Below are positions 11,601-64,000 of a DNA stretch of 64,000 nucleotides, one piece after another (position 1 is the first letter of the stretch; each line of letters begins with the position of its first letter). The notes under the pieces are model-generated. The model was not told where the DNA came from. It ran no database searches and saw nothing but the letters and a program-made list of their open reading frames with translations. The position numbers and the translations under genes were made by a program. This DNA is from Pristiophorus japonicus (Eukaryota): NCBI RefSeq assembly GCF_044704955.1, contig NC_091977.1, positions 13,454,001 to 13,518,000 on the forward strand, read 5' to 3'.

Positions 11601-13915
11601 AAATCAAGCAGACACAGCATGGATTCATGAAGGGGAAATCATGTTCAACTAATTTACTGGAATTCTTTGAGGATATAACGAGCATGGTGGATAGAGGTGT
11701 ACCGATGGATGTGGTGTATTTAGATTTTCAAAAGGCATTCGATAAGGTGCCACACAAAAGGTTACTGCAGAAGATAAAGGTACGCGGAGTCAGAGGAAAT
11801 GTATTAGCATGGATAGAGAATTGGCTGGCGAACAGAAAGCAGAGAGTCGGGATAAATGGGTCCTTTTCGGGTTGGAAATCGGTGGTTAGTGGTGTGCCAC
11901 AGGGATCGGTGCTGGGACCACAACTGTTTCCAATATATATAGATGACCTGGAAGAGGGGACAGAGTGTAGTGCAACAAAATTTGCAGATGACACAAAGAT
12001 TAGTGGGAAAGCGGGTTGTGTAGAGGACACAGAAAGGCTGCAAAGAGATTTAGATAGGTTAAGCGAATGGGCTAAGGTTTGGCAGATGGAATACAATGTC
12101 AGAAAGTGTGAGGTCATCCACCTTGGGGAAAAAAAGCAGTAAAAGGGAATATTATTTGAATGGGGAGAAATTACAACATGCTGCGGTGCAGAGGGACCTG
12201 GGGGTCCTTGTGCATGAATCCCAAAAAGTTAGTTTGCAGGTGCAGCAGGTAATCAGGAAGGCGAATGGAATGTTGGCCTTCATTGCGAGAGGGATGGAGT
12301 ACAAAAGCAGGGAGGTCCTGCTGCAACTGTATAGGGTATTGGTGAGGCCGCACCTGGAGTACTGCGTGCAGTTTTGGTCACCTTATTTAAGGAAGGATAT
12401 ACTAGCTTTGGAGGGGGTACAGAGACGATTCACTAGGCTGATTCCGGAGATGAGGGGGTTACCTTATGATGATAGATTGAGTAGACTGGGTCTTTACTCG
12501 TTGGAGTTCAGAAGGATGAGGGGTGATCTTATCAAAACATTTAAAATAATGAAAGAGATAGACAAGATAGAGGTGGAGAGGTTGTTTCCACGGGTCGGGG
12601 AGACTAGAACTAGGGGGCACAGCCTCAAAATACGGGGGAGCCAATTTAAAACCAAGTTGAGAAGGAATTTCTTCTCCCAGAGGGTTGTGAATCTGTGGAA
12701 TTCCCTGCCCAAGGAAGCAGTTGAGGCTAGCTCATTGAATGTATTTAAGTCACAGATAGATAGATTTTTAACCAATAATGGAATTAAGGGTTACGGGGAG
12801 CGGGCGGGTAAGTGGAGCTGAGTCCACGGCCAGATCAGCCATGATCTTGTTAAATGGCGGAGCAGGCTCGAGGGGCTAGATGGCCTACTCCTGTTCCTAA
12901 TTCTTATGTTCTTATGTTCTTTTCATCATATGACAACCCCTTCATCTCCAGAATCAACTTCGTGAACATTCTCTGAAATGCCTCCAATGCAAGTAGATCC
13001 TTCCTTAAATAAGGAGACCAGAACTGTATGCAGTACTCCAGTTGTGGTCTCACCAATACCCTGTACAGTTGGAGCAGGACTTCCCTACTTTTATACTCCA
13101 TCTCCTTTGCAATAAAGAACAGCATTCCATTTACCTTCCTGATTACTTGCTGTTCCTGCATGCTAACTTTTTGCGTTTCATGCACAAGGACCCCAGATCC
13201 TTCTATATTACAGCACTTTTTGTAATCACTCCCCATTTAAATAATAATTTGCTTTTTTATTTTTCCTGCCAAAATGAATAACTTCACACTTTCCCACATT
13301 ATAGTCCATCTGCCAAATGTTTGCCCACTCACTTAGCCTGTCTATATCCCTTTGTAGATTCTTTGCTTTAGCCTCACAACTTGCTTTCCCACCTCTCATA
13401 TATCATCAGCAAATTTGGCTACATTCCACTCAGTCCCTTCATCCAAATCATTAATATAAATTGTAAATAGTTGAGGAGCTAGTACCGATCCCTGCGGTAC
13501 CCCACTAGTTATTGTTTGCCAACCTGAAAATGACCCATTTATCCCGACTCTCTATTTTCTGTTAGTTAGCTAATCCTCTATCCATGCTAATATATTACCC
13601 CCAATCCCGTGAGCTCCTATCTTGTGCAGTAACCTTTTGTGTGGCACCTTATCAAATGTTTCTGGAAATCCAACTATACGACATCATCTGGTTCTCCTCT
13701 ATCCACTCTGCTCGTTACATACTCAAAGAACTCCAGCGGATTTGTCAAGCATGATTCCCATTCATAAAACCATGCTGACTCTGCTTGACTGCATTATGAT
13801 TTTCTAAATGTCCTGCTACTACTTCCTTAATGATGGACTCCAGCATTTTTCCAATGACAGATGTTAAGCTAACTGGTCTACAGTTTCCTGCTTTCTGTCT
13901 TCCACCTTTCTTAAA
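8636..13915 (-). mobile_element. CR1 LINE (minus) in two pieces, 8636-9058 and 12919-13915
   Basis: CATAAGAA tail at 8638; CCTGCTCAACC (to 9058) continues as CTTTTCATCATATGACAACCCC at ~12919. Confidence 0.85.
9059..12918 (+). mobile_element. Near-full-length young CR1: ORF1 esterase (SGNH-like) part plus disrupted ORF2 EN-RT
   Basis: ORF1 VIGDSIVRG...VVHIGTND; ORF2 AITETW, GGGVAL, GDFN, SDH, DFQKAFD, FADDTK; GTTCTTAT tail; a few stops and frameshifts. Confidence 0.95.
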
Positions 13916-17739: not shown

Positions 17740-20700
17740 ATTCAGTTTGTTTAAAATGAAGGCCTGTAAACTGAAGCCGTGTGCACATTTAGTTTGTTTG
17801 AGATAAACCCCAGTGCTCATTTAGTTTCAGATGAATATCTGAGCTCAATTCAATTAGATGAAAGTCTGAAATCATTTAGTTTGCGGTGAAGATCTGTGCT
17901 CAGTAATTTGATTGAGATGAAGAATCTGTGCTCATTTAATTTGAGAAGAAGATCTGTGCTCATTTAGTTTGTTCGAGCTGAAGATCTGAGCTCAATTTGT
18001 TTAGATTTGAAGGTCTGTGCTCATTTAGTTTGAGATGAGGATTTGGCTCGTTTAGTTTGAAATGAAGATCTGTGCTCAATTAGTTTGACATGAAGATGTG
18101 TGCTTATTTAGTTAGATTTGAAGATGTGTGCTCATTTGTTTGGTTGAGATGAAAGTCTGTGCTCATTTAGTTGACTTGAAGATCTGTGCTCATTTAGTTT
18201 GAGATGAAGATCTGTGCTCACTTAAATTTGAGGTGAGCATTTGGCTCACTTAGTTTGAGATGAAGACCTGAGCTCATTTAGATTGAGATGAGGATTTGGC
18301 TCATTTAGTTTGTTGGAGATGAAGATTTGAGCTCATTTAGTTTGAATTGAAGATCTGTGCTCATTTAGTTTGTAATGAGGATCTGTTCACATTTAGTTTG
18401 TTTGAGATGAAGATCTGTGCTCATTTAGTTTGAGATGGAGATCTGTGCTCATTTAGTTTGAGATAAGGATTTGGCTCATTTAGTTTGAGATGAGGATCTG
18501 ATCTCAGTTAGCTTGAGGTGAAGATCTGTGGTCATTTAGTTTGAGATGAAGAGCAGATCACATTTAGTTTGAGATGAAGATCTGTGCTCATTTTGTTTGA
18601 GATGAACATCTGAGATCTTTAATTTTGAGATGAAGATCAGATCACATTTAGTTTCAGATTAAGATCTGTGCTCATTTAGTTTGTTTCAGATGATCTGAGT
18701 TAAGTTGGTTGAGATGAAGATCCGAGCTCATTTAATTTGAGATGAAAATCTGTGCTCAATTAGGTTGAGATGAAGATCTGTGCTCATTTAGTTTGTTGGG
18801 GATGATGTTCTATCCTCATTTAGTTTGAGATGAAGATCTGAGCTCATTTCGTTTGAGATGAACATAAGAACATAAGAATATAAGAAATTGGAACCGGCCC
18901 CTTGAGCCTGCTCCGCCATTCAATAAGATCATGGCTGATCTGATCATGGACTCAACTCCACTTTCCTGCCCGCTCCCCATAACCCCTTATCCTCTTATTG
19001 TTTAAGAAACTGTCTATTTCTGTCTTAAATTTATTCAATGTCCCAGCTTCCACAGCTCTCTGAGGCAGTGAATTCCAGATTTACAACCCTCTGCGAGAAG
19101 AAATTTCTCCTCATCTCAGTTTTAAATGGGCTGCCCCTTATTCTAACTTTGTGCCTTCTAGTTCTAGTCTGCCGCATCAGTGGAAACATCCTCACTGCAT
19201 CCACCTTGTCAAGCCCCCTCATAATCTTATACATTTCTATAAGATCATCTCTCATCCTTCTGAATTCCAATGAGTAGAGGCCCAACCTACTCAACCTTTC
19301 CTCATAAATCAACCCCCTCATCCCCGGAATCAACCTAGTGAACCTTCTCTGAACTGCCTCCAAAGCAAGTATTTTCTTTCATAAATATGGAAACCAAACT
19401 ACACGCAGTATTCCAGGTGTGGCCTCACGAATACCCTGTATAGCCGTAGTAAGACTTCCCTGCTTTTATACTCTATCCCCTTTGCAATAAAGGCCAAGAT
19501 ACCATTGGCCTTCCTGATCACTTGCTGTACCTGCATACTATGCTTTTGTGTTTCATGCACAAGTACCCCCAGGTTCCACTGTACTGCAGCACTTTGTAAT
19601 CTTCCTCCATTTAAATAATAACTTGCTGTTTGTTTTTTCTGCCAAAGTGCATGATCTCACACTTTCCAACATTATACTCCATCTGCCAAATTTTTGCCCA
19701 CTCACTTAGCCTGTCTATGTCCTTTTGCAAATTTTTTGTGTCGTCCTCACACATTGCTTTTCCTCCCATCTTTTTATCATCAGCAAACTTGGCTATGTTA
19801 CACTCAGTCCCTTCCTTCTTCCAAGTCATTAATATAGATTGTAAATAGTTGGGGTCCCAGCGCTGATCCCTTCGGCACCCCACTAGTTACTGGTTGCCAA
19901 CCAGAGAATGAACCATTTATCCCGACTCTCTGTTCTCTGTTAGTTAGCCAATCTTCTAGCCATGCTTATATATTACCCCCAACCCCGTGAACCTTTATCT
20001 TGTGCAGTAACCTTTTATGTGGCACCTTGTCAAATGCCTTCTGGAAATCCAAATACACCACATCCACTGGTTCCCCTTTATCCACCCTGTTCGTTACATC
20101 CTCAAAGAACTCCAGCAAATTTGTCAAACATGACTTCCCCTTCATAAATCCTTGCTGACTCTGCCTGACCGAATTTTATTTTCCAAATGTCCTGCTACTG
20201 TTTCTTTAATAATGGACTCCAACATTTTCCCAACCACAGATGTTAGGCTAACTGTCTATAGCTTCCTGCTTTTTGTCTGCCCCCTTTTTTAATTACATTT
20301 GCAGTTTTCCAATCTGCTGGGACCTCCCCAGAATCCAGGGAATTTTGATAAATTACAACCAATTCATACACTATCCCTGCCGCTTCTTCTCTTAAGAACC
20401 TAGGATGCAAGCCATAGGTCCAGGGGATTTATCTGCCTTTAGTCCCATTATCTTACTGAGTACCACCTCCTTAGTGATTGTGATTGTGTTAAGTTCCTCC
20501 CCCATAACCCCTAGACTATCCACAGATGAAGCTCTGTGCTCATTTAGTTTGAGATGAGGATCTGAGCTCATTTAGTTTGAGATGAGGATCTAAGCTCATT
20601 TAGTTTTGTTGAGATGAAGATCTGAGCTCATTTAGTTTTGTTGAGATGACGATCTGTAATCATTTAGTTTGAGATGAAGATCTGAGCTCATTTAATTTGT

Positions 20701-22275
20701 TGGAGATAAAGATCTGTGTTCATTAAGTCTGAGATGAAGATCTGTGCTCATTTTGATTGGTTGAGATGAAGATCGGTGCTCATTTAGTTCGGTTGAGATG
20801 AAGATCTCTCCTTATTTAGTTTGAGATGAAGATCAGGCTCATTTAGTTTGGTTGAAATGAAGATCTGAGGTCATTTAGTTTGTTGGAGATGAAGGTCTGA
20901 GCTCCTTTAGTTTGAGATGAAGATCTTTTCACATTTAGTTTTTTTGAGATGAAGATCTGTGCTCAATTAGTTTGAGATAATGATTTGACTCATTTTGTTT
21001 GAGATGAAGATCTGTGCTCGGTCAGTTGGAGGTGAAGATCTGAGCTTATTTAGTTTGTTTGAGATGAAGATCTGTGCTCGGTCAGTTGGAGGTGAAGATC
21101 TGAGCTTATTTAGTTTGTTTGAGATGAAGATCTGTGCTCGGTCAGTAGGAAGTGAAGATCTGTGCGCATTTAGTTTGAGATGAAGATCTTTTCTCATTTA
21201 GTTTGAGAGGAGGATTTGGCTCATTTAGTATGAGATGAAGATCTGTGCTCATTTAGTTTGAAATGAAGATCTGAGCTTATTTAGTTTGGATGAAGATCTG
21301 TGCTCATTTAGTTTGGTTGAAATGAAGATCTGAGGTCATTTAGTTTGAGATGAAGATCTGAGCTCATTTAGTTTGGTTGAAATGAAGATGTGAGCTTATT
21401 TAGTTTGGATGAAGATCTGTGCTCATTTAGTTTGGTTGAAATGAAGATCTGAGGTCATCTAGTTTGAGATGAAGATCTGTGCTCATTTAGTTTTGTTGAA
21501 ATGAAGGTCTGTGCCCATTTAGTTTGTTGGAGATAAAGATCTGAGCTCATTTCGATCGGTTGAGATGAAGATCGGTGCTCATTTTGTTTGAGTTGAAGAT
21601 CTGAGCTAATTTAGTTTGTTGGAGATGAAGATCTAAGATCATTTAGTTTGACAGGAGGATCAGTGCTCAACTAGTTTGTTTGAGATGAAGATCTGTGTTC
21701 ATTTAGTTTGAGATGAGGATCTGTGTTCATTTAGTTTGAGATGAGGATCTGTGTTCATTTAGTTTGAGATGAGGATCTGTGCTCATTTAGTTTGAGATGA
21801 GGATCTGTGTTCATTTAGTTTGAGATGAGGATCTGTGTTCATTTAGTTTGAGATGAAGATCTGAGCTCAATTAGTTTGAAATGAAGATCTAAGCTCATTT
21901 AGTTTGTTGGCGATGAAGATCTGTGTTCAGTTAGTTTGGTTGAGATGAAGATCTTTGCTCATTTAGGTTGAGATTAAAATGTGAGCTCATTTAGTTTGAG
22001 ATGAAGATCTGTGCTCATTTAGTTTGTTGGAGATGAAGATCTGTGCTCATTTAGTTTGAAATGAGGATCTGTGCTGAACTAGTTTGGTTGAGATGAAGAT
22101 CTGAGCTCACTTAGTTTGAGATGGAGATCTGTGCTCATTTTGTTGGAGATGAAGATCTGAGCTTAGTCAGTTTGAGATGAAGATCTGAGCTCATTTATTT
22201 TGTTGGAGATGAAGATCTGAGCTCATTTATTTTGTTGGAGATGAAGATCTGAGCTCATTTAGTTGATTTGAAATA
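17740..22275. repeat. Degenerate satellite, 28/32-bp unit GAGATGAAGATCTGTGCTCATTTAGTTT(GTTT), split by a CR1
   Basis: Tandem copies at ~17740-18860 and ~20524-22275; three ~60-bp higher-order copies at ~21001-21180. Confidence 0.95.
18861..20523 (-). mobile_element. 5'-truncated CR1 inserted in the satellite
   Basis: CATAAGAA tail; RT motifs on the minus strand; AGATGAA present at both junctions. Confidence 0.92.
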
Positions 22276-22820
22276 TGGCAAAGTAGCATGGAATATGTCT
22301 GGTCATGATATCAAATAAAACTAATACTCTGCTGAATCAGGTTAAAATCACTATTTCCAATATCTTAGCTCCTCGTGTACACGACGTGACCTTGAATAGT
22401 ATGGGACCGGATTTGCGGGGGGGAGGCGCGGGGTGTTGAGGAGAGCCAGATGTGCCAGATAAATATTTTACCCCAGTTTTTTCGAGCATATGCATTGATT
22501 TCTGTGTACTACCGACCACCCCTTATAAAAGTCATTGTGGGTCATGTGTTCTATATGATGAATTTTGAGTCACAAGTATGTGGAGGTAATGCTTGAAGAT
22601 TTTTCTGTAATTTTTTTGTGGATATTAGTGAAATGTTGTCGGGGTAGATTTCGACTTTATGCGACAGTGTAAACAAGCCCGTTTTACATCTTTCACGCTT
22701 TGTATTCCCGTTGAAGTCGAGGGACTCGCCGTCACCTCTTTTACACAATCGCACAAAGTCAAGAGAAACCCAATTGTCGTTCCCCAAAAATGCTGAGACA
22801 CCCCGTTCTTCTTGTCGTAG

Positions 22821-29075: not shown

Positions 29076-31303
29076 ATTTACTTTAAACCCGCCTTCCCAT
29101 CGGTTGGCCTTTACCTCAAGCTGTTGATAGTAACAGATCTTGGTGTTCTGATTTAGGATTTATCCACCGGTCCTTTCCAAAACATCCACACCCTTTGGGG
29201 GCAGTTTTAACCTGACGTCCCGGGACCGGGTGAAAAACTGGTTTTTGCACCTTGCCCGATTTTAGTCTAAGTTTATTGGAGGAAAGTGTTCCATCCAATC
29301 CCATGGGTTTCCCGTTAGATCAAAATTGCCCCACCCATGAAATTCACACAGGACAACACCAGCGAGCAAGCAGTAAAGGTATACATAGCATCTGAGCTTT
29401 TGAGGGCTGGATGGGCAGGGGCTTGTTGGGATGTACCCTCCGATTCACAGGCTGGTACACTCTGGCTAGGCTGATCCAGGTACCATCTGCAGTCTAGACA
29501 GCCCTGCACCAATAAGGATTTAGATCTTGTGAAGTTTGGAGAGTGGGGGAGGGAATAATCCCGGTATATTTACATTGTTGCTTCAACCTGCTTCAACAAA
29601 AAGTTTAACTAAAAACACAAAAAATGCTTGCAAACCAGGGGCGAGGCAATTCAAACTGGTCCCCTACCTATCCCAATCAAAGCGTGTGTCGACCCTCTTT
29701 AAAACATGGCAGGCAAATCTACTTTGAGTTGGATAAAGGCTCCCCTGTCCTGTTACCTGCCCCGTCGCCCTTGCAGAATTCCAAGGTGACATGCAAAATA
29801 TTCCACAAACTTTGGGATAATCAACCAAATAACTGCAGTTATTACACTTTCACATTTTAATTTGGAAACTCCTCAGCAATGGCAAATGGATGTCATAGCT
29901 GGGTAGGGGAAAGAACAATTTAATTATTAATCTCCACTGAGGCAGAGAAATGTGGCTGTCCGAGCTGATGTGTACTCCAAGTGAACATGTACTGTGAGCA
30001 CATTATTACTGTGAGCACATTATTACTGCAATGATTACTTCTGAGTTCGGTGCACAGTAGTTTGAAATGTTATCTGTATTGCTTGACTGAAAGCCCATGT
30101 CACGGTCTCTGATCTTAGTTGCGCACTGCCTACTTCTGATAGAGAATATCCATCTGTAGCCCTTCTTACAGTGGGCTGTATGTGGTGGGCTGTGGTACAT
30201 TCAGGCTTACACGCCCATCCACTTCAGTGTCCTGATCTATTGATCAGGGTACGGACAGATGGAGGAAAAGGCCAAGTCAAGGACCCAATACAGATGTGAG
30301 CTGGCTCTGGTGAATGTCGATGTACTGACGTTCTCTGATTGTAATCCCAATAAGAGGTTAGACGACATTCAGCTTTGCAACATCCACCAACACAGTGCAA
30401 GAAAAAAATAACGTGGCTTGAACTCTTTCTGTTAATAGCGCGCTATTTCTGATTGTGTGAGATATCAATTCTGTCATCTTTGCTCTAAAGAAATGTTATC
30501 TTGTGTAATAACAAACCAACCAGCTTGGTCAGTAGTGGGCAGTGAAACACTTGGTTTTAACGTTTGAAGTTGTAGAGTTTAAAGCCGGAGTGAAATTTCC
30601 CCACCCTCCGCCGGCTGGACATGCTCCCCTCCCCCTCCTCCTCCTGCGGACCCTATGGCCAGGATTTCCGATCCCTCCTCTGTGATTTGACACGGATATA
30701 CCTTCTCCCAGTGGATTCTTGGAACTATTGATGGCACCAGGACTGCAGTGCATCCCCCTCACTGGAAATCCATGATGCCGGAGGTGACAAATTAGGAAAG
30801 GGTGTCAATTCAACAGATTAACTGCGGTGAAACATGTCATTAAAGCTGACTTTTTAAATATATCAAAACAAAACACTCAATTGTATACCTTTGATTGATT
30901 GTTCAGAACTCCAGGGTTAATGCCAACACATGGGATACTGTCTCTTTAATGAATGTATTGTAAACTTTCTGTGAAAATGCACAATTGTACAAACTGAAGA
31001 TGTCTGACCGAGTTTCCTGGGCGTGAGATGTGTGTCAGTCCCTTTCATTACCTGTAAATTTAGTTGTTCCACAGGCTTCTTTGCTGCTGGTCAGCTGTAC
31101 CTGTTTCAGTTCAAAGTCTACACTTGATGACCTGCAAGGTAATGCTGTCGAAAGAAGTGTCAATGTACATGTTGAGAATCAGTGGAATATTGAAACCGCC
31201 AGATTGGTCACGGACCCAAGTGACTTGTACAGCTACAGCTCCAACACGACGCTCATAGTTACAGACCATCCTAAACCTCAACTTCGGGTCACACTTGCAA
31301 CAT

Positions 31304-33580
31304 GGTCATGGTCCTGTCGACTGAAGCCTAGGGTCATGGTCCTGTAGTTTGTAGCCCAGGGTCATGGTCCTGTAGACTGAAGCCCAGGGTCATGGTCCTG
31401 TAGACTGAAGCCTAGGGTCATGGTCCTGTAGACTGAAGCCTAGGGTCATGGTCCTGTAGACTGAAGCCTAGGGTCATGGTCCTGTAGACTGAAGCCTAGG
31501 GTCATGGTCCTGTAGTTTGTAGCCCAGGGTCATGGTCCTGTAGACTGAAGCCTAGGGTCATGGTCCTGTAGTTTGTAGCCCAGGGTCATGGTCCTGTAGA
31601 CTGAAGCCTAGGGTCATGGTCCTGTAGACTGAAGCCTAGGGTCATGGTCCTGTAGTTTGTAGCCCAGGGTCATGGTCCTGTAGACTGAAGCCTAGGGTCA
31701 TGGTCCTGTAGACTGAAGCCTAGGGTCATGGTCCTGTAGTTTGTAGCCCAGGGTCATGGTCCTGTAGACTGAAGCCCAGGGTCATGGTCCTGTAGTTGTA
31801 GCCCAGGGTCATGGTCCTGTAGGATGTAGCCCAGGGTCATGGTCCTGCAGACTGTAGCCTAGGGTCATGGTAATGTCGACTGAAGCCCAGGGTCATGGTC
31901 CTGTAGACTGAAGCCCAGGGTCATGGTAATGTCGACTGAAGCTCAGGGTCATGGTCCTGTAGGTTGTAGCCCAGGGTCATGGTCCTGTAGGTTGTAGCCC
32001 AGGGTCATGGTCCTGTAGGTTGTAGCCCAGGGTCATGGTCCTGTAGGTTGTAGCCCAGGGTCATGGTCCTGTAGACTGAAGCCCAGGGTCATGATCCTGT
32101 AGACTGAAGCCCAGGGTCATGATCCTGTAGGTTGTAGCCCAGGATCATGGTCCTGTAGACTGAAGCCCAGGGTCATGGTCCTGTAGACTGAAGCCCCAGG
32201 TCATGGTCCTGTAGACTGAAGCCCAGGGTCATGGTCCTGTATTATGAAGCCCAGTGTCACGGTCCTGTAGACTGAAGCCCAGGGTCATGGTCCTGTAGGT
32301 TGTAGCCCAGGGTCATGGTCCTGTAGACTGAAGCCCAGGGTCATGATCCTGTAGACTGAAGCCCAGGGTCATGGTCCTGTAGGTTGTAGCCCAGGGTCAT
32401 GGTCCTGTAGACTGAAGCCCAGGGTCATGATCCTGTAGACTGAAGCCCAGGGTCATGGTCCTGTAGGTTGTAGCCCAGGATCATGGTCCTGTAGACTGAA
32501 GCCCAGGGTCATGATCCTGTAGACTGAAGCCCAGGGTCATGATCCTGTAGACTGAAGCCCAGGGTCATGGTCCTGTAGGTTGTAGCCCAGGATCATGGTC
32601 CTGTAGACTGAAGCCCAGGGTCATGGTCCTGTAGACTGAAGCCCAGGGTCATGGTCCTGTATTCTGAAGCCCAGTATCACGGTCCTGTAGACTGAAGCCC
32701 AGGGTCATGGTCCTGTAGACTGAAGCCCAGGGTCATGGTCCTGTAGACTGAAGCCCAGGGTCACGGTCCTGTAGACTGAAGCCCAGGGTCACGGTCCTGT
32801 AGACTGAAGCCCAGGGTCACGGTCCTGTAGACTGAAGCCCAGGGTCACGGTCCTGTAGACTGAAGCCCAGGGTCACGGTCCTGTAGACTGAAGCCCAGGG
32901 TCACGGTCCTGTAGACTGAAGCCCAGGGTCACGGTCCTGTAGACTGAAGCCCAGTGTCACGGTCCTGTAGACTGAAGCCCAGGGTCATGGTCCTGTAGAC
33001 TGAAGCCCAGGGTCATGGTCCTGTAGACTGAAGCCCAGGGTCACTGTCCTGTAGGTTGTAGCCCAGGGTCATGGTCCTGTAGACTGAAGCCCAGGGTCAT
33101 GGTCCTGTAGACTGAAGCCCAGGGTCATGGTCCTGTAGACTGAAGCCCAGGGTCATGGTCCTGTAGACTGAAGCCCAGGGTCATGGTCCTGTAGACTGAA
33201 GCCCAGGGTCATGGTCCTGTAGACTGAAGCCCAGGGTTATGGTCCTGTAGTCTGAAGCCCAGAGTTATGGTCCTGTAGACTGAAGCCCAGGGTCACGGTC
33301 CTGTAGACTGAAGCCCAGGGTCACGGTCCTGTAGACTGAAGCCCTGGGTCACGGTCCTGTGGGTGTAATTCAGGGTCATGGTCCTGTAGGTTGTAGCCCA
33401 AGGTCATGATCCTGTAGGTTGTAGCCCAGGGTCATGGTCCTGTAGGTTGTAGCCCAGGGTCATGGTCCTGTGGACTGAAGCCCAGGGTCATGGTCCTGTG
33501 GTTGTAGCCTAGGGTCACTGTCCTGTGGGTTGTAGCCCAATGTTCTGGTCTGGGCTGAAGAGCAATGTCATGGTCCTGTA
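31304..33580. repeat. 28-bp minisatellite, ~80 copies (GGGTCATGGTCCTGTAGACTGAAGCCCA)
   Basis: Regular 28-bp period with clustered variant units. Confidence 0.98.
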
Positions 33581-45794: not shown

Positions 45795-46005
45795 TTTCAT
45801 AGGCAGTCCCTCGGGGTCGAGGATTACTTGCTACTACACTAAAACTGAGTACTCAGGTCACTGATGAACTCATTTTAAACTGTGGAAGGTGCCTGTGCGT
45901 GAATTCTTTTAACGTGAGGGGACCGTTGCACATCATTACCACACAAAATGACGGAGCAAGGTCTTGGTCCAGAGGCAAGGGGATCCAAGACGACTGGAGA
46001 CCTCT
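45795..46005 (-). mobile_element. RTE-tailed non-autonomous repeat, copy 2
   Basis: CATAGGCAGTCCCTCGGGGTCGAGGA...GGTCTTGGTCCAG...GACGACTGGAGACC. Confidence 0.65.
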
Positions 46006-47120
46006 GCTCCTCGCCCGCTCCGACCTCCGCTCCTCGCCCGCTCCGACCTCCGCTCCTCACCGCTTCCAACCTCCGCTCCTCGCCCGCCCCGACCTCCGTT
46101 CCTCGCCCGCCCCGACCTCCGCTCCTCGCCCGCCCCGACCTCCGTTCCTCGCCCACCCCGACCTCCGCTCCTCGCCCGCCCCGACCTCCGCTCCTCGCCC
46201 GCCCCGACCTCCGCTCCTCGCCCGCCCCGACCTCCGCTCCTCGCCCACCCCGACCTCCGTTCCTCGCCCGCCCCGACCTCCGCTCCTCGCCCGCCCCGAC
46301 CTCCGCTCCTCGCCCGCCCCGACCTCCGCTCCTCGCCCACCCCGACCTCCGCTCCTCGCCCACCCCGACCTCCGCTCCTCGCCCACCCCGACCTCCGCTC
46401 CTCGCCCACCCCGACCTCCGCTCCGACCTCCGCTCCTCGCCCACCCCGACCTCCGCTCCTCGCCCGCCCCGACCTCCGCTCCTCGCCCACCCCGACCTCC
46501 GCTCCTCGCCCGCCCCGACCTCCGCTCCTCGCTCGCCCCGACCTCCGCTCCGACCTCCGCTCCTCGCCCACCCGACCTCTGCTCCGACCTCCGCTCCGAC
46601 CTCCACTCCTCGCTCGCCCCGACCTCCGCTCCTCGCCCGCCCCGACCTCCGCTCCGACCTCCGCTCCTCGCCCGCCCCGACCTCCGCTCCTCGCCCGCCC
46701 CGACCTCCGCTCCTCGCCCGCCCCGACCTCCGCTCCGACCTCCGCTCCTCGCCCGCCCCGACCTCCGCTCCTCGCCCGCCCCGACCTCCGCTCCTCGCCC
46801 ACCCCGACCTCCGCTCCTCGCCCGCCCCGACCTCCGCTCCTCGCCCGCCCCGACCTCCGCTCCTCGCCCGCCCCGACCTCCGCTCCTCGCCCACCCCGAC
46901 CTCCGCTCCTCGCCCGCCCCGACCTCCGCTCCTCGCCCACCCCGACCTCCGCTCCTCGCCCGCCCCGACCTCCGCTCCTCGCCCACCCCGACCTCCGTTC
47001 CTCGCCCGCTCTGACCTCCGCTCCTCGCTGCCTCAAACCTCCACTCCTCGCCCGCTCCGACCTCCACTCCTTGCCGCTTCCGACCTCCGCTCCTCGCCGC
47101 TTCTGACCTCCACTCCTTTA
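46002..47120. repeat. GC-rich 23-bp minisatellite (CGACCTCCGCTCCTCGCCCGCCC)
   Basis: 23-bp period; explains the six long Pro/Arg/Gly-rich ORFs. Confidence 0.97.
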
Positions 47121-47861
47121 CTTCCTTAGTTACACTGATGGTTCATCCTTCTCTTAGAGTCTTTCTTTCTCACTAGAATATATCTTTGTTGAGAGTTATG
47201 AAATATCTCCTTAAATGTTTGCCACTGCTTTTCTACCATCTTAACCTTTAATCTATTTTCCCAGTCAACTTTAGCCAACTCTGCCTTCATACCTTTGTAA
47301 TTACCTTTACTTACATTCAGGACACTAGTTTGAGACCTAGCTTCTTCACCCTCAAACTGAATTTTAAATTCTACCATGCTATGATCACTCTTCCCAAGAG
47401 GATTCTTCATTATGAGATCATTAATTAATCCAGACACATTGCACATTACCAGATCTAAAATAGTCCACTCCTTGGTTGGATCCATGACGTATTGTTCCAA
47501 GAAACCATCCCGCATACACTCTATGAACGCTTCCTCAATGCTACCTTTGCCAATTTGATTTGTCCAATCAATATTAAAATTAAAATCGCCCATGATTATT
47601 GCCGTACCTTTCTTACAAGTCTCCATTATTTCTTGATTTATAGTCTATCCTACAGTGTGGCTACTGTTAGGGGCCTGTAGACCACTCCCACCAATGACTT
47701 CTTTCCCTTATTATTCATTATCTCCAGCCAAACTGATTGTACATCTTGATCTTCTGAGCCAATATAATTTCTCACTACTGCACATCTCATCCTTTATTAA
47801 CAGAGTTACCCCAACTCCTTTTCCTTTCTGCCTAACCTTCCGAAAAGGCAAATACCCCTGA

Positions 47862-51004: not shown

Positions 51005-52722
51005 TTTAACATGCAGCAATTAGGAAAGCAAATGGAATGTTAACCTTTATTACAAAAGGATTGGAGTAGAAGAGTAAAGAAGTCTTACTGCAATTATATA
51101 ATGACTGGGTGGAACCACATCTGAACTACTGTGTACAGTTTTGGCCTCCTCATATAAGGAAGGATATACTTGCCATTGAGGGAGTGCAATAAAGGTTCAC
51201 CAGACTGATTCCTGGGATGGGGAGATTGTCCTTTGAGGAGAGATTGAGTAGACTAGGCCTATATTCTCTAGAGTTTCAAAGAATGAGAGGTGATCTCATT
51301 GAAACTTAGAAAAAAATCGGTGGTTAGTGGTGTGCCACAGGGATCGGTGCTGGGACCACAACTGTTTACACTATACATAGATGACCTGGAAGAGGGGACA
51401 GAGTGTAGTGTAACAAAATTTGCAGATGACACAAAGATTAGTGGGAAAGCAGGTTGTGTAGAGGACAGAGAGGCTTCAAAGAGATTTAGATAGGTTAAGC
51501 GAATGGGCTAAGGTTTGGCAGATAGAATACAATGTCAGAAAGTGTGAGATCATCCACCTTGGGAAAAAAAAACAGTAAAAGGGAATATTATTTGAATGGG
51601 GAGAAATTACAACATGCTGCGGTGCAGAGGGACCTGGGGGTCCTTGTGCATGAATCCCAAAGAGTTAGTTTGGAGGTGCAGCAGGTAATCAGGAAGGCGA
51701 ATGGAATGTTGGCCTTCATTGCGAGAGGGATGGAGTACAAAAGCAGGGAGGTCCTGCTGCAACTGTATAGGGTATTGGTGAGGCCGCACCTGGAGTACTG
51801 CGTGCAGTTTTGGTCACCTTACTTAAGGAAGGATATACTAGCTTTGGAGGAGGTACAGAGACGATTCACTAGGCTGATTCCGGAGATGAGGGGGTTACCT
51901 TATGATGATAGATTGAGTAGACTGGGTCTTTACTCGTTGGAGTTCAGAAGGATGAGGGGTGATCTTATAGAAACATTTAAAATCATGAAAGGGATAGACA
52001 AGATAGAGGCAGAGAGGTTGTTTCCACTGGTCAGGGAGACTAGAACTAGGGGGCACAGCCTCAAAATACGGGGGAGCCAATTTAAAACCGAGTTGAGAAG
52101 GAATTTCTTCTCCCAGAGGATTGTGAATCTGTGGAATTCTCTGCCCAAGGAAGCAGTTGAGGCTAGCTCATTGAATGTATTCAAGTCACAGATAGATAGA
52201 TTTTTAACCAATAAGGGAATTAAGGGTTATGGGGAGCGGGCGGGTAAGTGGAGCTGAGTCCACGGCCAGATCAGCCATGATCTTGTTGAATGGCGGAGCA
52301 GGCTCGAGAGGCTAGATGGCCTACTCCTGTTTCTAATTCTTATGTTCTTATGTTAAAATTCTTACAGGGCTTGACAGGGTAGGTGCAGAGAAGATGTTTC
52401 CCCTAGCTGGGGAGTCTAGACCAGGGGTCGCAGTCTCAGAATAAGGGGTGGGCCATTTAAGACTGAAATGAGGAGACATTTCTTCACTCAGAGGGTGGTG
52501 AATGATTTGAATTCTCTACCCCAGAGGGCTGTGGAAGCTCAGTCATTGAGTACATTCCAGACAGGGATCAATATATTTTTGGGTATTAAGGGAATTAAGG
52601 GATATGGGGACAGTGCGGGAAGGTGAAGGTGAGATTGAAGATCAGGCATGATCTTCTTGAATGGCAGAGCAGGCTTGAGGGGCCATATGTCCTATTCTTG
52701 CTCCTGTTTCTTATGTTCTTAT
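51005..52722 (+). mobile_element. Older CR1 3' fragment with a nested young CR1 (~51313-52354)
   Basis: Host GATCTCATTGAAAC continues as AAAATTCTTACAGGG after 52354; the nested copy is near-identical to ~11876-12918. Confidence 0.9.
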
Positions 52723-58092: not shown

Positions 58093-60072
58093 AAAGTAAA
58101 CTTGCGCAAAACATAAAAACAGATAGTAAAAGCTTTTATAGATATAAAAAACGGAAAAGAGTGACTAAAGTAAATGTTGGTCCCTTCGAAGACGAGAAGG
58201 GGGATTTAATAATGGGAAATGTGGAAATGGCTGAGACCTTAAACAATTATTTTGCTTCGGTCTTCACAGAGGAAGACACAAAAACCATGCCAAAAATTGC
58301 TGGTCACAGGAATGTGGGAAGGGAGGACCTTGGGACAATCACTATCACTAGGGGGTGTAGTGCTGGACAGGCTAATGGGACTCAAGGTAGACAAGTCCCC
58401 TGGTCCTGATGAAATGCATCCCAGGGTATTAAAAGAGATGGCGGAAGTTATAGCAGATGCATTCGTTATAATCTACCAAAATTCTCTGGACTCTGGGGAG
58501 ATACCAGCGGATTGGAAAGCAGCTAATGTAACGCCTCTGTTTTAAAAAGGGGGCAGACAAAAGGCAGGTAACTATAGGCCGGTTAGTTTAATATCTGTAG
58601 TGGGGAAAATGTTTGAAGCTATCATTAAGGAAGGAATAGCGGGACATCTTGATATGAATAGTGCAATCAAGCAGACACAACATGGATTCATGAAGGGGAA
58701 ATAATGTTTAACTAATTTACTGGAATTCTTTGAGGATATAACAAGCATGGTGGATAGAGGTGTACCGATGGATGTGGTGTATTTAGATGTCCAAAAGGCA
58801 TTCGATAAGGTGTCACACAAAAGGTTACTGCAGAAGATAAAGGTACGCGGAGTCAGAGGAAATGTATTAGCATGGATCGAGAATTGGCTGGCTAATTCTC
58901 AGAAAGCAGAGAGTCGGGATAAATGGGTCCTTTTCGGGTTGGAAGTCGGGGGTTAGTGATGTGCCACAGAGATCGGTGCTGGGACCACAACTGTTTACAA
59001 TATACATAGATGACCTGGAAGAGGGGACAGAGTGTAGTGTAACAAAATTTGCAGATGACACGAAGATTAGTGGGAAAGCGGGTTGTGTAGAGGACACAGA
59101 GAGGCTGCAAAGAGATTTAGATAGGTTAAGCAAATGGGCTAAGGTTTGGCAGATGGAATACAATGTCGGAAAATGTGAGGTCATCCACCTTGGGAAAAAA
59201 AACAGTAAAAGGGAATATTATTTGACTGGGGAGAAATTACAACATGCTGCGGTGCAGAGGGACCTGGGGGTCCTTGTGTATGAAACTCTTTTTGGAAAAG
59301 CTTTAGCATGTCACATTTAACGTGATAAAATCTCGATAGATGCAGGTGGAGGTCGAACCCATGTGTTTTGGTTTACGAGACCGACGCTTTACCACTTGGC
59401 CACTAGTTTGCAGGTGCAGCAGGTAATCAGGAGGCAAATGGAATGTTGGCCTTCATTGCGAGAGGGATGGAGTACAAAAGCAGGGAGGTCTTGTTGCAAA
59501 TGTATAGGGTATTGGTGAGGCTGCACCTGGAGTACTGTGTGCAGTTTTGGTCACCTTACTTAAGGAAGGATATACTAGCTTTGGAGGGGGTACAGAGACG
59601 ATTCACTAGGCTGATTCCGGAGATGAGGGGGTTACCTTATGATGATAGATTGAGTAGACTGGGTCTTTACTCGTTGGAGTAAAGAAGGATGAGGGGTGAT
59701 CTTATAGAAACATTTAAAATAATGAAAGAGATAGACAAGATAGAGGCAGAGAGGTTGTTTCCACTGGTCGGGGAGACTAGAACTAGGGGGCACAGCCTCA
59801 AAATACGGGGGAGCCAATTTAAAACCGAGTTGAGAAGGTATTTCTTCTCCCAGAGGGTTGTGAATCTGTGGAATTCTCTGCCCAAGGAAACAGTTGAGGC
59901 TAGCTCATTGAATGTATTCAAGTCACAGATAGTTAGATTTTTAACCAATAAGGGAATTAAGGGTTATGGGGAGCGGGCGGGTAAGTGGAGCTGAGTCCAC
60001 GGCCAGATCAGCCATGATCTTGTTGAATGGTGGAGCAGGCTCGAGGGGCTAGATGGCCTACTCCTGTTCCTA
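58093..60072 (+). mobile_element. Young CR1 ORF2 copy carrying the tRNA-Thr-headed insertion
   Basis: Near-identical to ~11045-12900. Confidence 0.93.
59285..59403 (-). mobile_element. tRNA-Thr(CGT)-derived SINE-like insertion, 119 bp
   Basis: Minus strand GTGGCCAAGTGGTAAAGCGTCGGTCTCGTAAACC...GGGTTCGACC matches vertebrate tRNA-Thr-CGT; tail ends TTCCAAAAAGAGT; it replaces about 11 bp of CR1. Confidence 0.85.
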
Positions 60073-60205
60073 AAAAAAAAGAATGTTGATGGTGTTGGAT
60101 GAGGTACCAATCAAGCGGGCTGCTTTGTCCTGGATGGTGTAGAGCTTCTTGTGTGTTGAAGCTGCACTCATCCAGGCAAGGGGAGAGTATTCCATCACAC
60201 TCCTG

Positions 60206-61748
60206 AGCTAATGTAACGCCTTTGCTTAAAAAAGGGGTCAGACAAAAGGCAAGTAACTATAGGCCGATTAGTTTAACATCTGTAGTGGGGAAAATGATTG
60301 AAACTATCATTAAGGAAGAAATAGCGGGACATCTAGATAAGAATAGTGCAATCAAACAGACGCAGCATGTATTCATGAAGGGGAAATCATGTTTAACTAA
60401 TTTACTGGAATGCTTTGAGGATATAACGAGCATGGTGGATAGAAGTGTACCGATGGATGTGGTGTATTTAGATTTTCAAAAGGCATTCGATAAGGTGCCA
60501 CACAAAAGGTTACTGCAGAAGATAAAGGTACGCGGAGTCAGTGGAAATGTATTAGCATGGATATAGAATTGGCTGGCTAACAGAAAGCAGAGAGTCGGGA
60601 TAAATGGGTCCTTTTCGGGTTGGAAATCGGTGGTTAGTGGTGTGCCACAGGGATCGGTGCTGGGACCACAACTGTTTACAATATACATAGATGACCTGGA
60701 AGAAGGGACAGAAGGTCGTGTAACAAAATTTGCAGATGACACAAAGATTAGTGGGAAAGCGGGTTGTGTAGAGGACACAGAGAGGCTGCAAAGAGATTTA
60801 GATAGGTTAAGCGAATGGGCTAAGGTTTGGCAGATGGAATACAATGTTGGAAAGTGTGAGGTCATCCACCTTGGGAAAAAAACAGTAAAAGGGAATATTA
60901 TTTGAATGGGGAGAAATTACAACATGCTGAGGTGCAGAGGGACCTGGGGGTCCTTGTGCATGAAACTCTTTTGGAGTTTACCTGAAAAAAACATAAACAT
61001 TAAACCGTGCCACCCGCCCCAGATGACACACCAGACATTTACAAGGCCCTTTTTTTCTTTTTTGTGTTTTTTTTTTGTGTTTTTCTTTTTTTGGGTTTTT
61101 TTTTTTGGGGCGCTAAAATCACATATTTTCCAGTGCCCCCTATAAAAGGGGATGGGGACACTAAAAGCACCGGCAATTAAAACAAATTAAACTTTAAAAC
61201 GTAAAATCAAATTAAAATTTGGTTGCCGGGCGTGATGATGCACTCCAGTCCCTCCGGTGCCCACCTCTCGCGGAAGGCCGCGAGCGTACCGGTGGACACC
61301 GCGTGCTCCATCTCCAAGGACACCCTGGACCGGATGTAAGAGCGGAAGAGAGGCAGGCAGTCAGGTTGAACGACCCCCTCGACCGCCCGCTGCCTGGACC
61401 GGCTGATGGCACCCTTGGCCGTGCCCAGGAGCAGTTCTACGAGGAGGCCCTCGGACCTACCCGCTCCCCTCCGCACAGGGTGCCCAAAGATCAGGAGAGT
61501 GGGACTGAAGTGCAGCCAGAATTTCAGGAGCAGCCCCTTCAAATAATGGAACAGGGGCTGCAATCCTTGTGCATGAATCCCAAAAAGTTAGTTTGCAGGT
61601 GCAACAGGTAATCAGGAAGGCGAATGGAATGTTGGCCTTCATTGCGAGAGGGATGGAGTACAAAAGCAGGGAGGTCCTGCTGCAACTGTACAGGGTATTA
61701 GTGAGGCTGCACTCCTGTTCCTAATTCTTATGTTCTTATGTTCTTATA
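60206..61748 (+). mobile_element. Young CR1 copy carrying the Tx1-like insertion and an internal 3' deletion
   Basis: Same subfamily; jumps from GTGAGGCTGC to ACTCCTGTTCC-tail near 61710. Confidence 0.9.
60965..61563 (-). mobile_element. 5'-truncated Tx1-like non-LTR retrotransposon (ORF2 C-terminus + 3' UTR), 599 bp
   Basis: Open frame 61563-61207 LQPLFHYLKGLLLKFWLHFSPTLLIFG...LLLGTAK...FRERW resembles the Tx1 ORF2p C-terminus; 14-bp TSD TCCTTGTGCATGAA at 60951-60964 and 61564-61577. Confidence 0.85.
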
Positions 61749-62175
61749 TTAAATAATGAATGCTTCTACCAAGCACCATCATTAAGGAGGATCTTCAAGA
61801 ACAAGAGGGAGGAGAAGAGAGCACTCCTGTCCCTCCTGCCCCACGAGGAAACCTGAAAAATAAATATTTAAAGCTAACCTTCTGGGCCTCTTCTGGCAAA
61901 GGATCTGGCTCCCGGTAGGTTTTTCCCTGATGGGGGAAGGAGGCGTGATACTGCCCCTCCCCCGCTCGGGCCTCTGCTCGAAATTGCAGTTCGGATCATG
62001 GTGACATCATCGGACCCGATCTGCATATGTAAAACAGGGAGCCCCCTTTCGTCCTGCAAGTGTCCTGCTCGCCTGCTCAAACGAGCAGGTTGCTATGGCT
62101 ACATGATGGGCTCAGAGAGATGTTGCTCACTCCCATTATTTTAACTCCCCAAAGCCTTTCCACAAGGCACAAGTC

Positions 62176-64000
62176 ATAAGAACATAAGAACATAAGAATT
62201 AGGAACAGGAGTAGGCCATCTAGCCCCTCGAGCCTGCTCCGCCATTCAACAAGATCATGGCTGATCTGGCCGTGGACTCAGCTCCACTTACCCGCTCGCT
62301 CCCCATAACCCTTAATTCCCTTATTGGTTAAAAATCTATCTATCTGTGACTTGAATACATTCAATGAGCTAGCCTCAACTGCTTCCTTGGGCAGAGAATT
62401 CCACAGATTCACAACCCTCTGGGAGAAGAAATTCCTTCTCAACTCGGTTTTAAATTGGCTCCTCTGTATTTTGAGGCTGTGCCCCCTAGTTCTAGTCTCC
62501 CGACCAGTGGAAACAACCTCTCTGCCTCTATCTTGTCTATCCCTTTCATTATTTTAAATGTTTCTGCAAGATCACCCCTCATCCTTCTGAACTCCAATGA
62601 GTAAAGACCCAGTCTACTCAATCTATCATCATAAGGTAACCCCCTCATCTCCGGAATCAGCCTAGTGAATCGTCTCTGTACCCCCTCCAAAGCTAGTATA
62701 TCCTTCCTTAAGTAAGGTGATCAAAACTGCATGCAGTACTTCAGGTGCGGCCTCACTAATACCCTGTACAGTTGCAGCAGGACCTCCCTGCTTTTGTACT
62801 CCATCCCTCTCGCAATGAAGGCCAACATTCCATTCACCTTCCTGATTACCTGCTGCACCTGCAAACTAACTTTTTGGGATTCATGCACAAGGACCCCCAG
62901 GTCCCTCTGCACCGCAACATGTTGTAATTTCTCCCCATTCAAATAATACTCCCTTTTACTGTTTTTTTTTCCAAGGTGGATGACCTCACATTTTCCGACA
63001 TTGTATTCCATCTGCCAGACCTTAGCCCATTTGCTTAACCTATCTAAATCTCTTTGCAGCCTCTCTGTGTCCTCTATACAACCGGCTTACCCATTAATCT
63101 TTGTGTCATCCGCAAATTTTGTTACACTACACTCTGTCCCCTCTTCCAGGTCATCTTGTATATATTGTGAACAGTTGTGGTCCCAGCACCGATCCCTGTG
63201 GCACACCACTAACCACCGATTTCCAACCCGAAAAGGACCCATTTATCCCGACTCTCTGCTTTCTGTTAGCCAGCCAATTCTCGATCCATGCTAATACATT
63301 TCCTCTGACACCACGTACCTTTATCTTCTGCATAAACCTTTTGTGTGGCACCTTATCGAATGCCTTTTGAAAATCTAAATACACCACATCCACCGGTACA
63401 CCTCTATCCACCATGCTCATTATATCCTCAAAGAATTCCAGTAAATTAGTTATACATGATTTCCCCTTCATGAATCCATGTTGCGTCTGCTTGATTGCAC
63501 TATTCCGATCTAGATGTCCCGCTATTTCTTCCTTAATGATAGCTTCAAGCATTTTCCCCACTACAGATGTTAAACTAACCGGCCTATATTTACCTGTCTT
63601 TTGTCTGCCCCCTTTTTTAAACAGAGGCGTTACATTAGCTGCTTTCCAATCCGCTGGTACCTCCCCAGAGTCCAGAGAATTTTGGTAGATTATAACGAAT
63701 GCATCTGCTATAACTTCCGCCATTTCTTTTAATACCCTGGGATGCATTTCATCAGGACCAGGGGACTTGTCTACCTTGAGTCCCATTAGCCTGTCCAGCA
63801 CTACCCCCCTAGTGATAGTGATTATCTCAAGGTCCTCCCTTCCCACATTCCCATGACCAGCAATTTTTGGCTTGGTTTTTGTGTCTTCCACTGTGAAGAC
63901 CGAAGCAAAATAATTGGTTAAGGTCTCAGCCATTTCCACATTTCCCATTATTAAATCCCCCTTCTCATCTTCTAAGGGACCAACATTTACTTTAGTCACT
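62176..64000 (-). mobile_element. Young CR1 copy running off the window end
   Basis: 282-aa RT-containing ORF 63151-63999; CATAAGAA tail at 62176. Confidence 0.95.

Follow-up and report, generated by a model that had tools for sequence, protein, structure and literature searches.

A tRNA-Thr(CGT)/Tx1 chimeric retrocopy in Pristiophorus japonicus and the probable capture of Pol III precursors by a Tx1-clade LINE

The fusion of an RNA polymerase III (Pol III) RNA, as head, to the 3′ end of a LINE is the proposed step by which SINEs are born, and it has usually been inferred from a few old cases. According to Doucet et al. 2015 (PMC4476161), template switching is largely limited to U6 and U6atac and constitutes a proposed route to SINEs. 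U6/L1 and other snRNA/LINE retrocopies (PMC4476161; Moldovan et al. 2019, PMC6789731) resemble the chimeras described here from a shark genome, where a single insertion likewise has the U-run of a sense-oriented Pol III RNA followed directly by the 3′ end of a LINE, here a Tx1-clade element. In those accounts, the partner of U6/L1 retrocopies is almost only U6 or U6atac, joined at many LINE positions, whereas the Tx1 chimeras carry mainly pre-tRNA and 5S rRNA, rarely U6, and are joined 9–14 nt from the LINE end. Short LINE parts and 5′-truncated heads, as in the Tx1 chimeras, are also described for the platypus U6-L2 retrocopies. Regarding tRNA, Law and Burns 2026 (PMC13174262) describe 21 human tRNA/LINE-1 chimeras, typically of tRNA halves and mostly antisense (twin priming); tRNA sequence is co-inserted with a LINE there as here, but the shark Tx1 chimeras are about ten times as many, include whole precursors with leader, intron and trailer, and were found in sense. 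For the site-specific element R2 of Drosophila, Eickbush and Eickbush 2012 (PMC3414825) present two jumps to tRNA, the full-length one being a mature tRNA with CCA, and also U12. Reverse transcription continues end-to-end on a small RNA in that system, as it appears to for Tx1, but the R2 jumps occur at the R2 5′ end, whereas those of Tx1 would occur at the start of synthesis and take precursors. Likewise, PRINT (PMC11371274) gives 'extra template' and snap-back junctions like those of Tx1, but the captured RNA is almost always U6.

Within the Tx1 clade, Kojima 2015 (PMC4494074) describes families aimed at other transposons, and states that independent chimeras accompany many plain LINE copies sharing their end. 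The Tx1-Mar/SINEU system of crocodilians and Xenopus Tx1L share with the shark element a transposon-targeting Tx1 and the recurrent 5′ addition of small RNA. The targets named in the text of that paper are Mariner, Harbinger, LTR elements and microsatellites, while the target here is a CR1-like LINE, although the target lists in its figures and supplement could include CR1; moreover, its heads are U1/U2 and its SINEU are true families, whereas the shark inserts are independent one-offs. Two further papers (PMC2912911 and PMC13343379) offered nothing specific for comparison. In the literature searched, with Repbase and most subscription journals outside its scope, we found no report of mass pre-tRNA capture or of a CR1-targeted Tx1, nor of chimeras at such a scale, precursor capture or a fixed jump point. 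The chimeras presented here are of a known kind, the LINE/small-RNA retrocopy. What appears new is that precursors would serve as templates, that the jump would follow priming by about 11 nt, that several RNAs may be captured in series, and that hundreds of events share one site.

The window (the whole stretch of DNA analysed, 64,000 nt) contains a 120-nt insert at positions 59404–59285 of the minus strand, in which a tRNA-like head is followed first by a stretch of 42 nt that closes with TTTT and then by an 11-nt end. The insert lies antisense within ORF2 of a LINE on the plus strand, whose target side of the cut occupies 58160–59284 (94.8% to the intact copy at 62170–64000) and whose other side occupies 59405–60073 (96.0% to the intact copy, and compared with empty sites). 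We tentatively call this host a CR1-like LINE on account of the RVT_1 domain of the intact copy and its 8-nt terminal tandem repeat near 62175–62199. Uninterrupted CR1-like copies in the window hold the empty target site on the plus strand at 62873–62901, with others at 12197–12225 and 51633–51661. Elsewhere, the window carries long minisatellite arrays with units of 28, 23 and 30/35 nt (17851–22292, 31161–32400 and beyond, 45854–47140, and 36–915).

The head (59338–59404, minus strand) corresponds to positions 6–73 of a degenerate tRNA-Thr(CGT) gene copy. The A-box, the CGT anticodon loop and the B-box described in the earlier note were all confirmed, as were the loss of the tRNA 5′ end and the lack of poly(A). 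Specifically, positions 1–5 are missing, and the A at 59404, position 6 of the tRNA, is common to host and head. The same note had proposed that about 11 bp of target were deleted instead of duplicated, and comparison with the empty CR1-like sites at 12230, 51666, 62868 and 14293 gave exactly 11 missing bp. As a tRNA the head is weak: it scored 21.8 bits against the Rfam tRNA model, whose gathering score is 29, and ARAGORN with default settings called no tRNA in the whole 64-kb window.

A DNA search of the organism's own genome (5.9 Gb), in which 40 of 252 candidates were scored, placed the head and the following stretch at 39 other places, of which 29 were fetched. The 109 nt from 59404 to 59296 were matched at 93–96% in all 29 of these donor loci. 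On its 5′ side, each locus also has the tRNA bases that the insert lacks, and on its 3′ side a T5 run, but not the last 11 nt of the insert; neither the Tx1 tail nor its target was present in any of them. The donor loci share at least 2.7 kb of common flank, and three fetched at 10 kb share 6–7.6 kb. ARAGORN calls the donor gene only at lowered thresholds, and Rfam gave no match at gathering score in the two donor loci scanned. Judged from its sequence, the donor is a degenerate, amplified tRNA-Thr(CGT) gene. Among sequencing runs, no RNA dataset was listed as containing this gene, which speaks neither for nor against its transcription. The unit of more than 6 kb that carries one such gene is present in at least 39 copies, many of them on small contigs also holding tRNA arrays, and in some copies the anticodon is changed to CAT.

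The 42-nt stretch (59337–59296, minus strand) is the genomic 3′ trailer of this tRNA-like gene; it ends in four T of the donor's T5 run and includes an internal T4, so that two T4 runs precede the Tx1 part. The earlier note had read about 55 nt as a Tx1-like tail, which holds for the last 11 nt but not for these 42; their resemblance to a Tx1 3′ UTR is coincidental, because the same stretch lies downstream of the gene in 29/29 donors. The T5 run of the donor is likely a Pol III terminator and presumably the true transcript end. The Tx1-derived part (59295–59285, minus strand; 11 nt, or 12 counting a shared T) matches exactly the end of a Tx1 subfamily (the 5-A end), which is also found on plain Tx1 copies and as stand-alone mini-inserts. 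Donor and Tx1 end overlap by 3 nt at their junction, and the opposite end of the insert shows the 1-nt overlap together with the 11-bp deletion. A pattern joining the trailer end to the start of the last 11 nt had 16 matches, and since only that of the window has a tRNA, the head/trailer/Tx1 join is single-copy. An origin of the tail by inversion of the 11 deleted target bases, which look alike, was considered and rejected, given that plain Tx1 copies terminate in the same 11–12 nt, as do mini-inserts with intact target. The Tx1 3′ end (59285–59296) does resemble the target immediately before the cut in reverse-complemented form (empty site 62860–62880), a likeness that might help targeting or early stalling.

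At a distance of 1.7 kb, the last 11 nt and the target that follows are found again, closing a 5′-truncated Tx1 copy of 599 nt (60965–61563, minus strand). This copy sits in a different CR1-like copy, at the identical target base, and is flanked by a 14-bp target duplication. Long copies of this element measure about 7.2 kb (ten upstream stretches fetched). The ORF2 of one copy encodes 1,315 aa with an APE-type endonuclease (PF03372) and a reverse transcriptase (PF00078), and shows 49% identity over 98% to Xenopus Tx1L (YTX2) and partial matches of 67–70% to shark and ray proteins; together with a sequence-specific target, these features point to the Tx1 clade. The junction between Tx1 end and target occurs 17,074 times genome-wide (control 0), and the genome also has 24,343 exact empty 29-mer target sites. 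When Tx1 ends were found independently of the target, the 14-nt target followed in 25 of 30, and its first 4 nt in four more. This Tx1-clade LINE inserts at one base of the CR1-like LINE ORF2, and the 7.2-kb element is likely the mobiliser of the window insert. Full-length copies also form head-to-tail stacks with a spacing of about 7.2 kb and up to eight successive junctions (C1:9.71–9.77 Mb and others).

Genome-wide, 234 junctions had a B-box 14–44 nt upstream and 85 had one 45–75 nt upstream (319 in total; controls 0). Being confined to B-boxes 14–75 nt away from the junction, the patterns under-represent chimeras with long tails, and the same-sense orientation is built into these patterns. 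Of these 319 matches, 120 non-identical loci were examined, comprising the first 30 of each search, 59 picked loci and two representatives of duplicated sets, with one repeat locus dropped from the sample; evident Tx1-UTR look-alikes and duplicates were skipped among those picked. Rfam scored tRNA above gathering in 44 of the 59 loci scanned. ARAGORN, at a lowered threshold that yields some miscalls, named the heads Asp, Trp, Arg, Val, Tyr, Ser, Phe, Leu, Gln, Glu and Gly, as well as Lys, Ile, Thr, SeC and others. Three other tRNA heads were already evident among the 30 loci listed first for one junction variant. We estimate about 200–250 independent tRNA chimera events, or about 1.5% of junctions, a figure below the number of matches because the listings hold Tx1-UTR variants (8 of the first 100), one locus duplicated 24 times among the 85, and a few loci found in both searches. 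The estimate is nevertheless a lower bound, as the searches demanded exact motifs and a different CR1-like host subfamily (on C1187) carries, at the homologous base, an Arg chimera with its own target duplication. No tRNA lay directly upstream in 30 consecutively listed junctions. The alternative offered by the earlier note, a one-off tRNA/LINE template-switch chimera, therefore stands as regards the chimera and the uniqueness of its sequence but not the process, since other tRNAs were joined in the same way at the same site.

Other Pol III RNAs are found in the same position. The end of 5S rRNA precedes the junction in 22 cases (Rfam confirmed all four checked), 7SL does so once, and U6 once, with extra bases after its T-run. 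At seven loci, heads resembling a tRNA-derived SINE of this genome, often truncated, were captured like tRNAs. In a further arrangement, at C5:162.41–162.43 Mb, a pre-tRNA-Arg chimera and a full-length Tx1 form three tandem repeats with identical junctions.

These inserts also bear on the first reading proposed in the earlier note, by which the insert would belong to a family of very short, tRNA-Thr-headed SINEs mobilised by Tx1. The A- and B-box-like motifs, the Tx1 end and the insertion at the Tx1 target would suit such a family, and Tx1-mobilised SINEs exist (SINEU, PMC4494074). The join is single-copy, however, and the other 29 loci are genes within a shared long unit; the presumed tail is the trailer of a tRNA-like gene, with no more than 11–12 nt from Tx1 and no poly(A). 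Furthermore, the last 30 nt differ in 116 of the 120 related inserts, and chimeras that are identical in several copies share kilobases of flank (four of 24 copies, on C23 and contigs like it, and three of six on C9), so their SINE-like spread was rejected in favour of segmental duplication after seven of about 30 such copies had been checked. Chimeras are a minority (319 matches against 17,074 junctions), and many plain LINE copies have the same 3′ end, which is Kojima's criterion (PMC4494074) for independent chimeras. The SINE family is largely refuted and we regard it as very improbable. The window insert is a LINE/small-RNA chimeric retrocopy: its 3′ part is a LINE 3′ end at that LINE's own target, its 5′ part is a sense copy of a cellular small RNA that stops within the T5 run of the donor, the presumed transcript end, and both belong to a single insertion event with an 11-bp truncation at the site.

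The state of the heads carries information on the RNA that was copied. Of 109 short-tailed loci, 65 have a TTT no more than 2 nt from the tail and 44 have none at the junction; among internal trailer positions, the proportion with TTT is 154 of 1,299. Introns of 16–19 nt were present in 14 Arg(TCG) and nine Tyr(GTA) called heads, no head of either type was called without one, and seven of eight Tyr heads begin at one leader base. Donors were traced for two head types, Thr and Arg. For the latter, leaders and trailers match tandem donor genes and end at their T-run; these donors form arrays with a period of 3,082 or about 2,340 bp on contigs also holding Thr donors. Each unit of the tRNA-Arg(TCG) arrays (on C3919 and C4095; 16-nt intron; 1,499 candidates) also carries a tRNA-Ser(GCT), and to our knowledge an intron in tRNA-Arg(TCG) is unusual for vertebrates. 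Mature tRNA was rejected as template: CCA after position 73 was found in none of the 120 loci, and a genome-wide search for the CCA-spacing pattern returned one match, imperfect by an extra base. The templates are likely Pol III precursors, to judge from these introns, leaders and trailers. Additionally, two or more T-arm motifs occur in 16 of 103 inserts, and several inserts chain two to four RNAs, one of them joining three tRNAs and 5S.

Gene DNA would hold introns, leaders and trailers alike, and a repair process that copied tRNA-gene DNA into a break left by an abortive Tx1 insertion might therefore give similar products. The overlaps in the window (3 nt between donor and Tx1 end; 1 nt with the 11-bp deletion at the other end) and the high amplification of tRNA genes in this genome are in keeping with such DNA-level capture. 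Against it, the ends cluster at T-runs and the starts at fixed leader bases, and genes of distinct kinds (tRNAs, 5S, 7SL) directly follow one another within inserts. Also against it, all 13 single-head inserts with a target duplication of at least 13 bp (13–16 bp) carry a full-length head. Among 103 left junctions, 70 are duplications (18 of 14 bp), six are blunt, and 27 are deletions of 1–11 bp, with the window insert at the deletion extreme. We consider DNA-level capture quite improbable.

The point at which the Tx1 sequence gives way to the captured RNA is narrowly placed. Scored against 67 Tx1 reference ends, the Tx1 part measured 9–14 nt in 108 of the 120 loci, although at least three of these 108 are longer tails of a subfamily missing from the references; it reached 11 nt or more in 78%, compared with about 10% in shuffles (8 nt being fixed by the pattern). 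The Tx1 end also occurs alone, as inserts of up to about 38 nt with full target duplication, in 1,091 cases, and 81 of 100 listed were 10–13 nt long (lengths entered by hand). The Tx1 end plus two target bases is predicted to form a hairpin of 4–7 bp with an A-rich loop in all 14 of the commonest ends, a weak structure (−1.7 to −4.8 kcal/mol) in whose 5′ arm the stop point falls. Palindromic inserts centred on this hairpin were found at 16 loci, and a fold-back palindrome also marks the 5′ junction of one examined locus; one such palindrome includes about 60 bp of inverted downstream sequence. We infer that synthesis stalls or is released within the hairpin, after which the product would be joined, folded back or extended by jumping end-to-end.

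A stall is one way to obtain these lengths; a cut Tx1 RNA would give the same 10–13-nt products. If the cut RNA end were ligated (RtcB-like) to a Pol III transcript and the fused RNA then inserted, the same sense-oriented product joined at the U-run would result, as shown for human U6/L1 in PMC6789731, and a fixed cut in the hairpin would account for the 10–13-nt class too. Chains of up to four RNAs would, on the other hand, demand repeated joining to triphosphate 5′ ends, and U6, the known substrate, has a single chimera, with bases added beyond its T-run, against 22 for 5S and hundreds for tRNA. Nascent Pol III transcripts, moreover, end in 3′-OH. U6/L1 ligation, as reported in PMC6789731, requires a 2′,3′-cyclic phosphate and falls sharply with 3′-OH U6. 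Prior ligation of the RNAs is, in our judgement, unlikely.

The reading we prefer, to which we assign a probability of roughly 80%, is that the terminal hairpin halts Tx1 reverse transcription after about 11 nt, whereupon synthesis jumps to the U-tail of a nascent Pol III transcript, as deduced from the DNA products. The Tx1 protein would nick the target and prime on its own RNA end, and synthesis would stall or be released within the 5′ arm of the hairpin. The short cDNA might then be joined unchanged, giving a mini-insert, fold back, giving a palindrome, or be extended end-to-end along one of the abundant Pol III transcripts of the nucleus, in some cases along several in series. In the case of the window insert, copying would have stopped before reaching the first 5 nt of the tRNA, and the product would have been joined through the 1-nt overlap with loss of the 11 bp. 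The roughly 200–250 chimeras suggest that the Tx1 copying enzyme likely switches frequently to newly made tRNA precursors. Such a chimera would have no future as a SINE, since Pol III would be stopped at the captured T-runs before it reached the tail, and the tail holds only part of the hairpin.

On balance, we lean towards regarding the Tx1 target site as a natural end-to-end library of germline pre-tRNA, 5S, 7SL and SINE transcripts, produced by a built-in stop at about 11 nt and serial U-tail capture. Such a library would register transcript starts, terminators and those pseudo-tRNA genes that are transcribed, and the site would also hold hundreds of SINE births that failed. A single 120-nt element has little weight alone, but hundreds of independent young events at one target base make the jump point, the choice of template and the joining of ends countable. 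The chimeras point to precursors as templates, rather than to mature tRNA or U6, and so have a bearing on the question of jump versus ligation. They also offer a reason why fusions of this kind mostly fail to spread, the terminator being copied ahead of the tail, and they record tRNA genes that are likely transcribed in the germ line of this shark, the degenerate Thr donor included.
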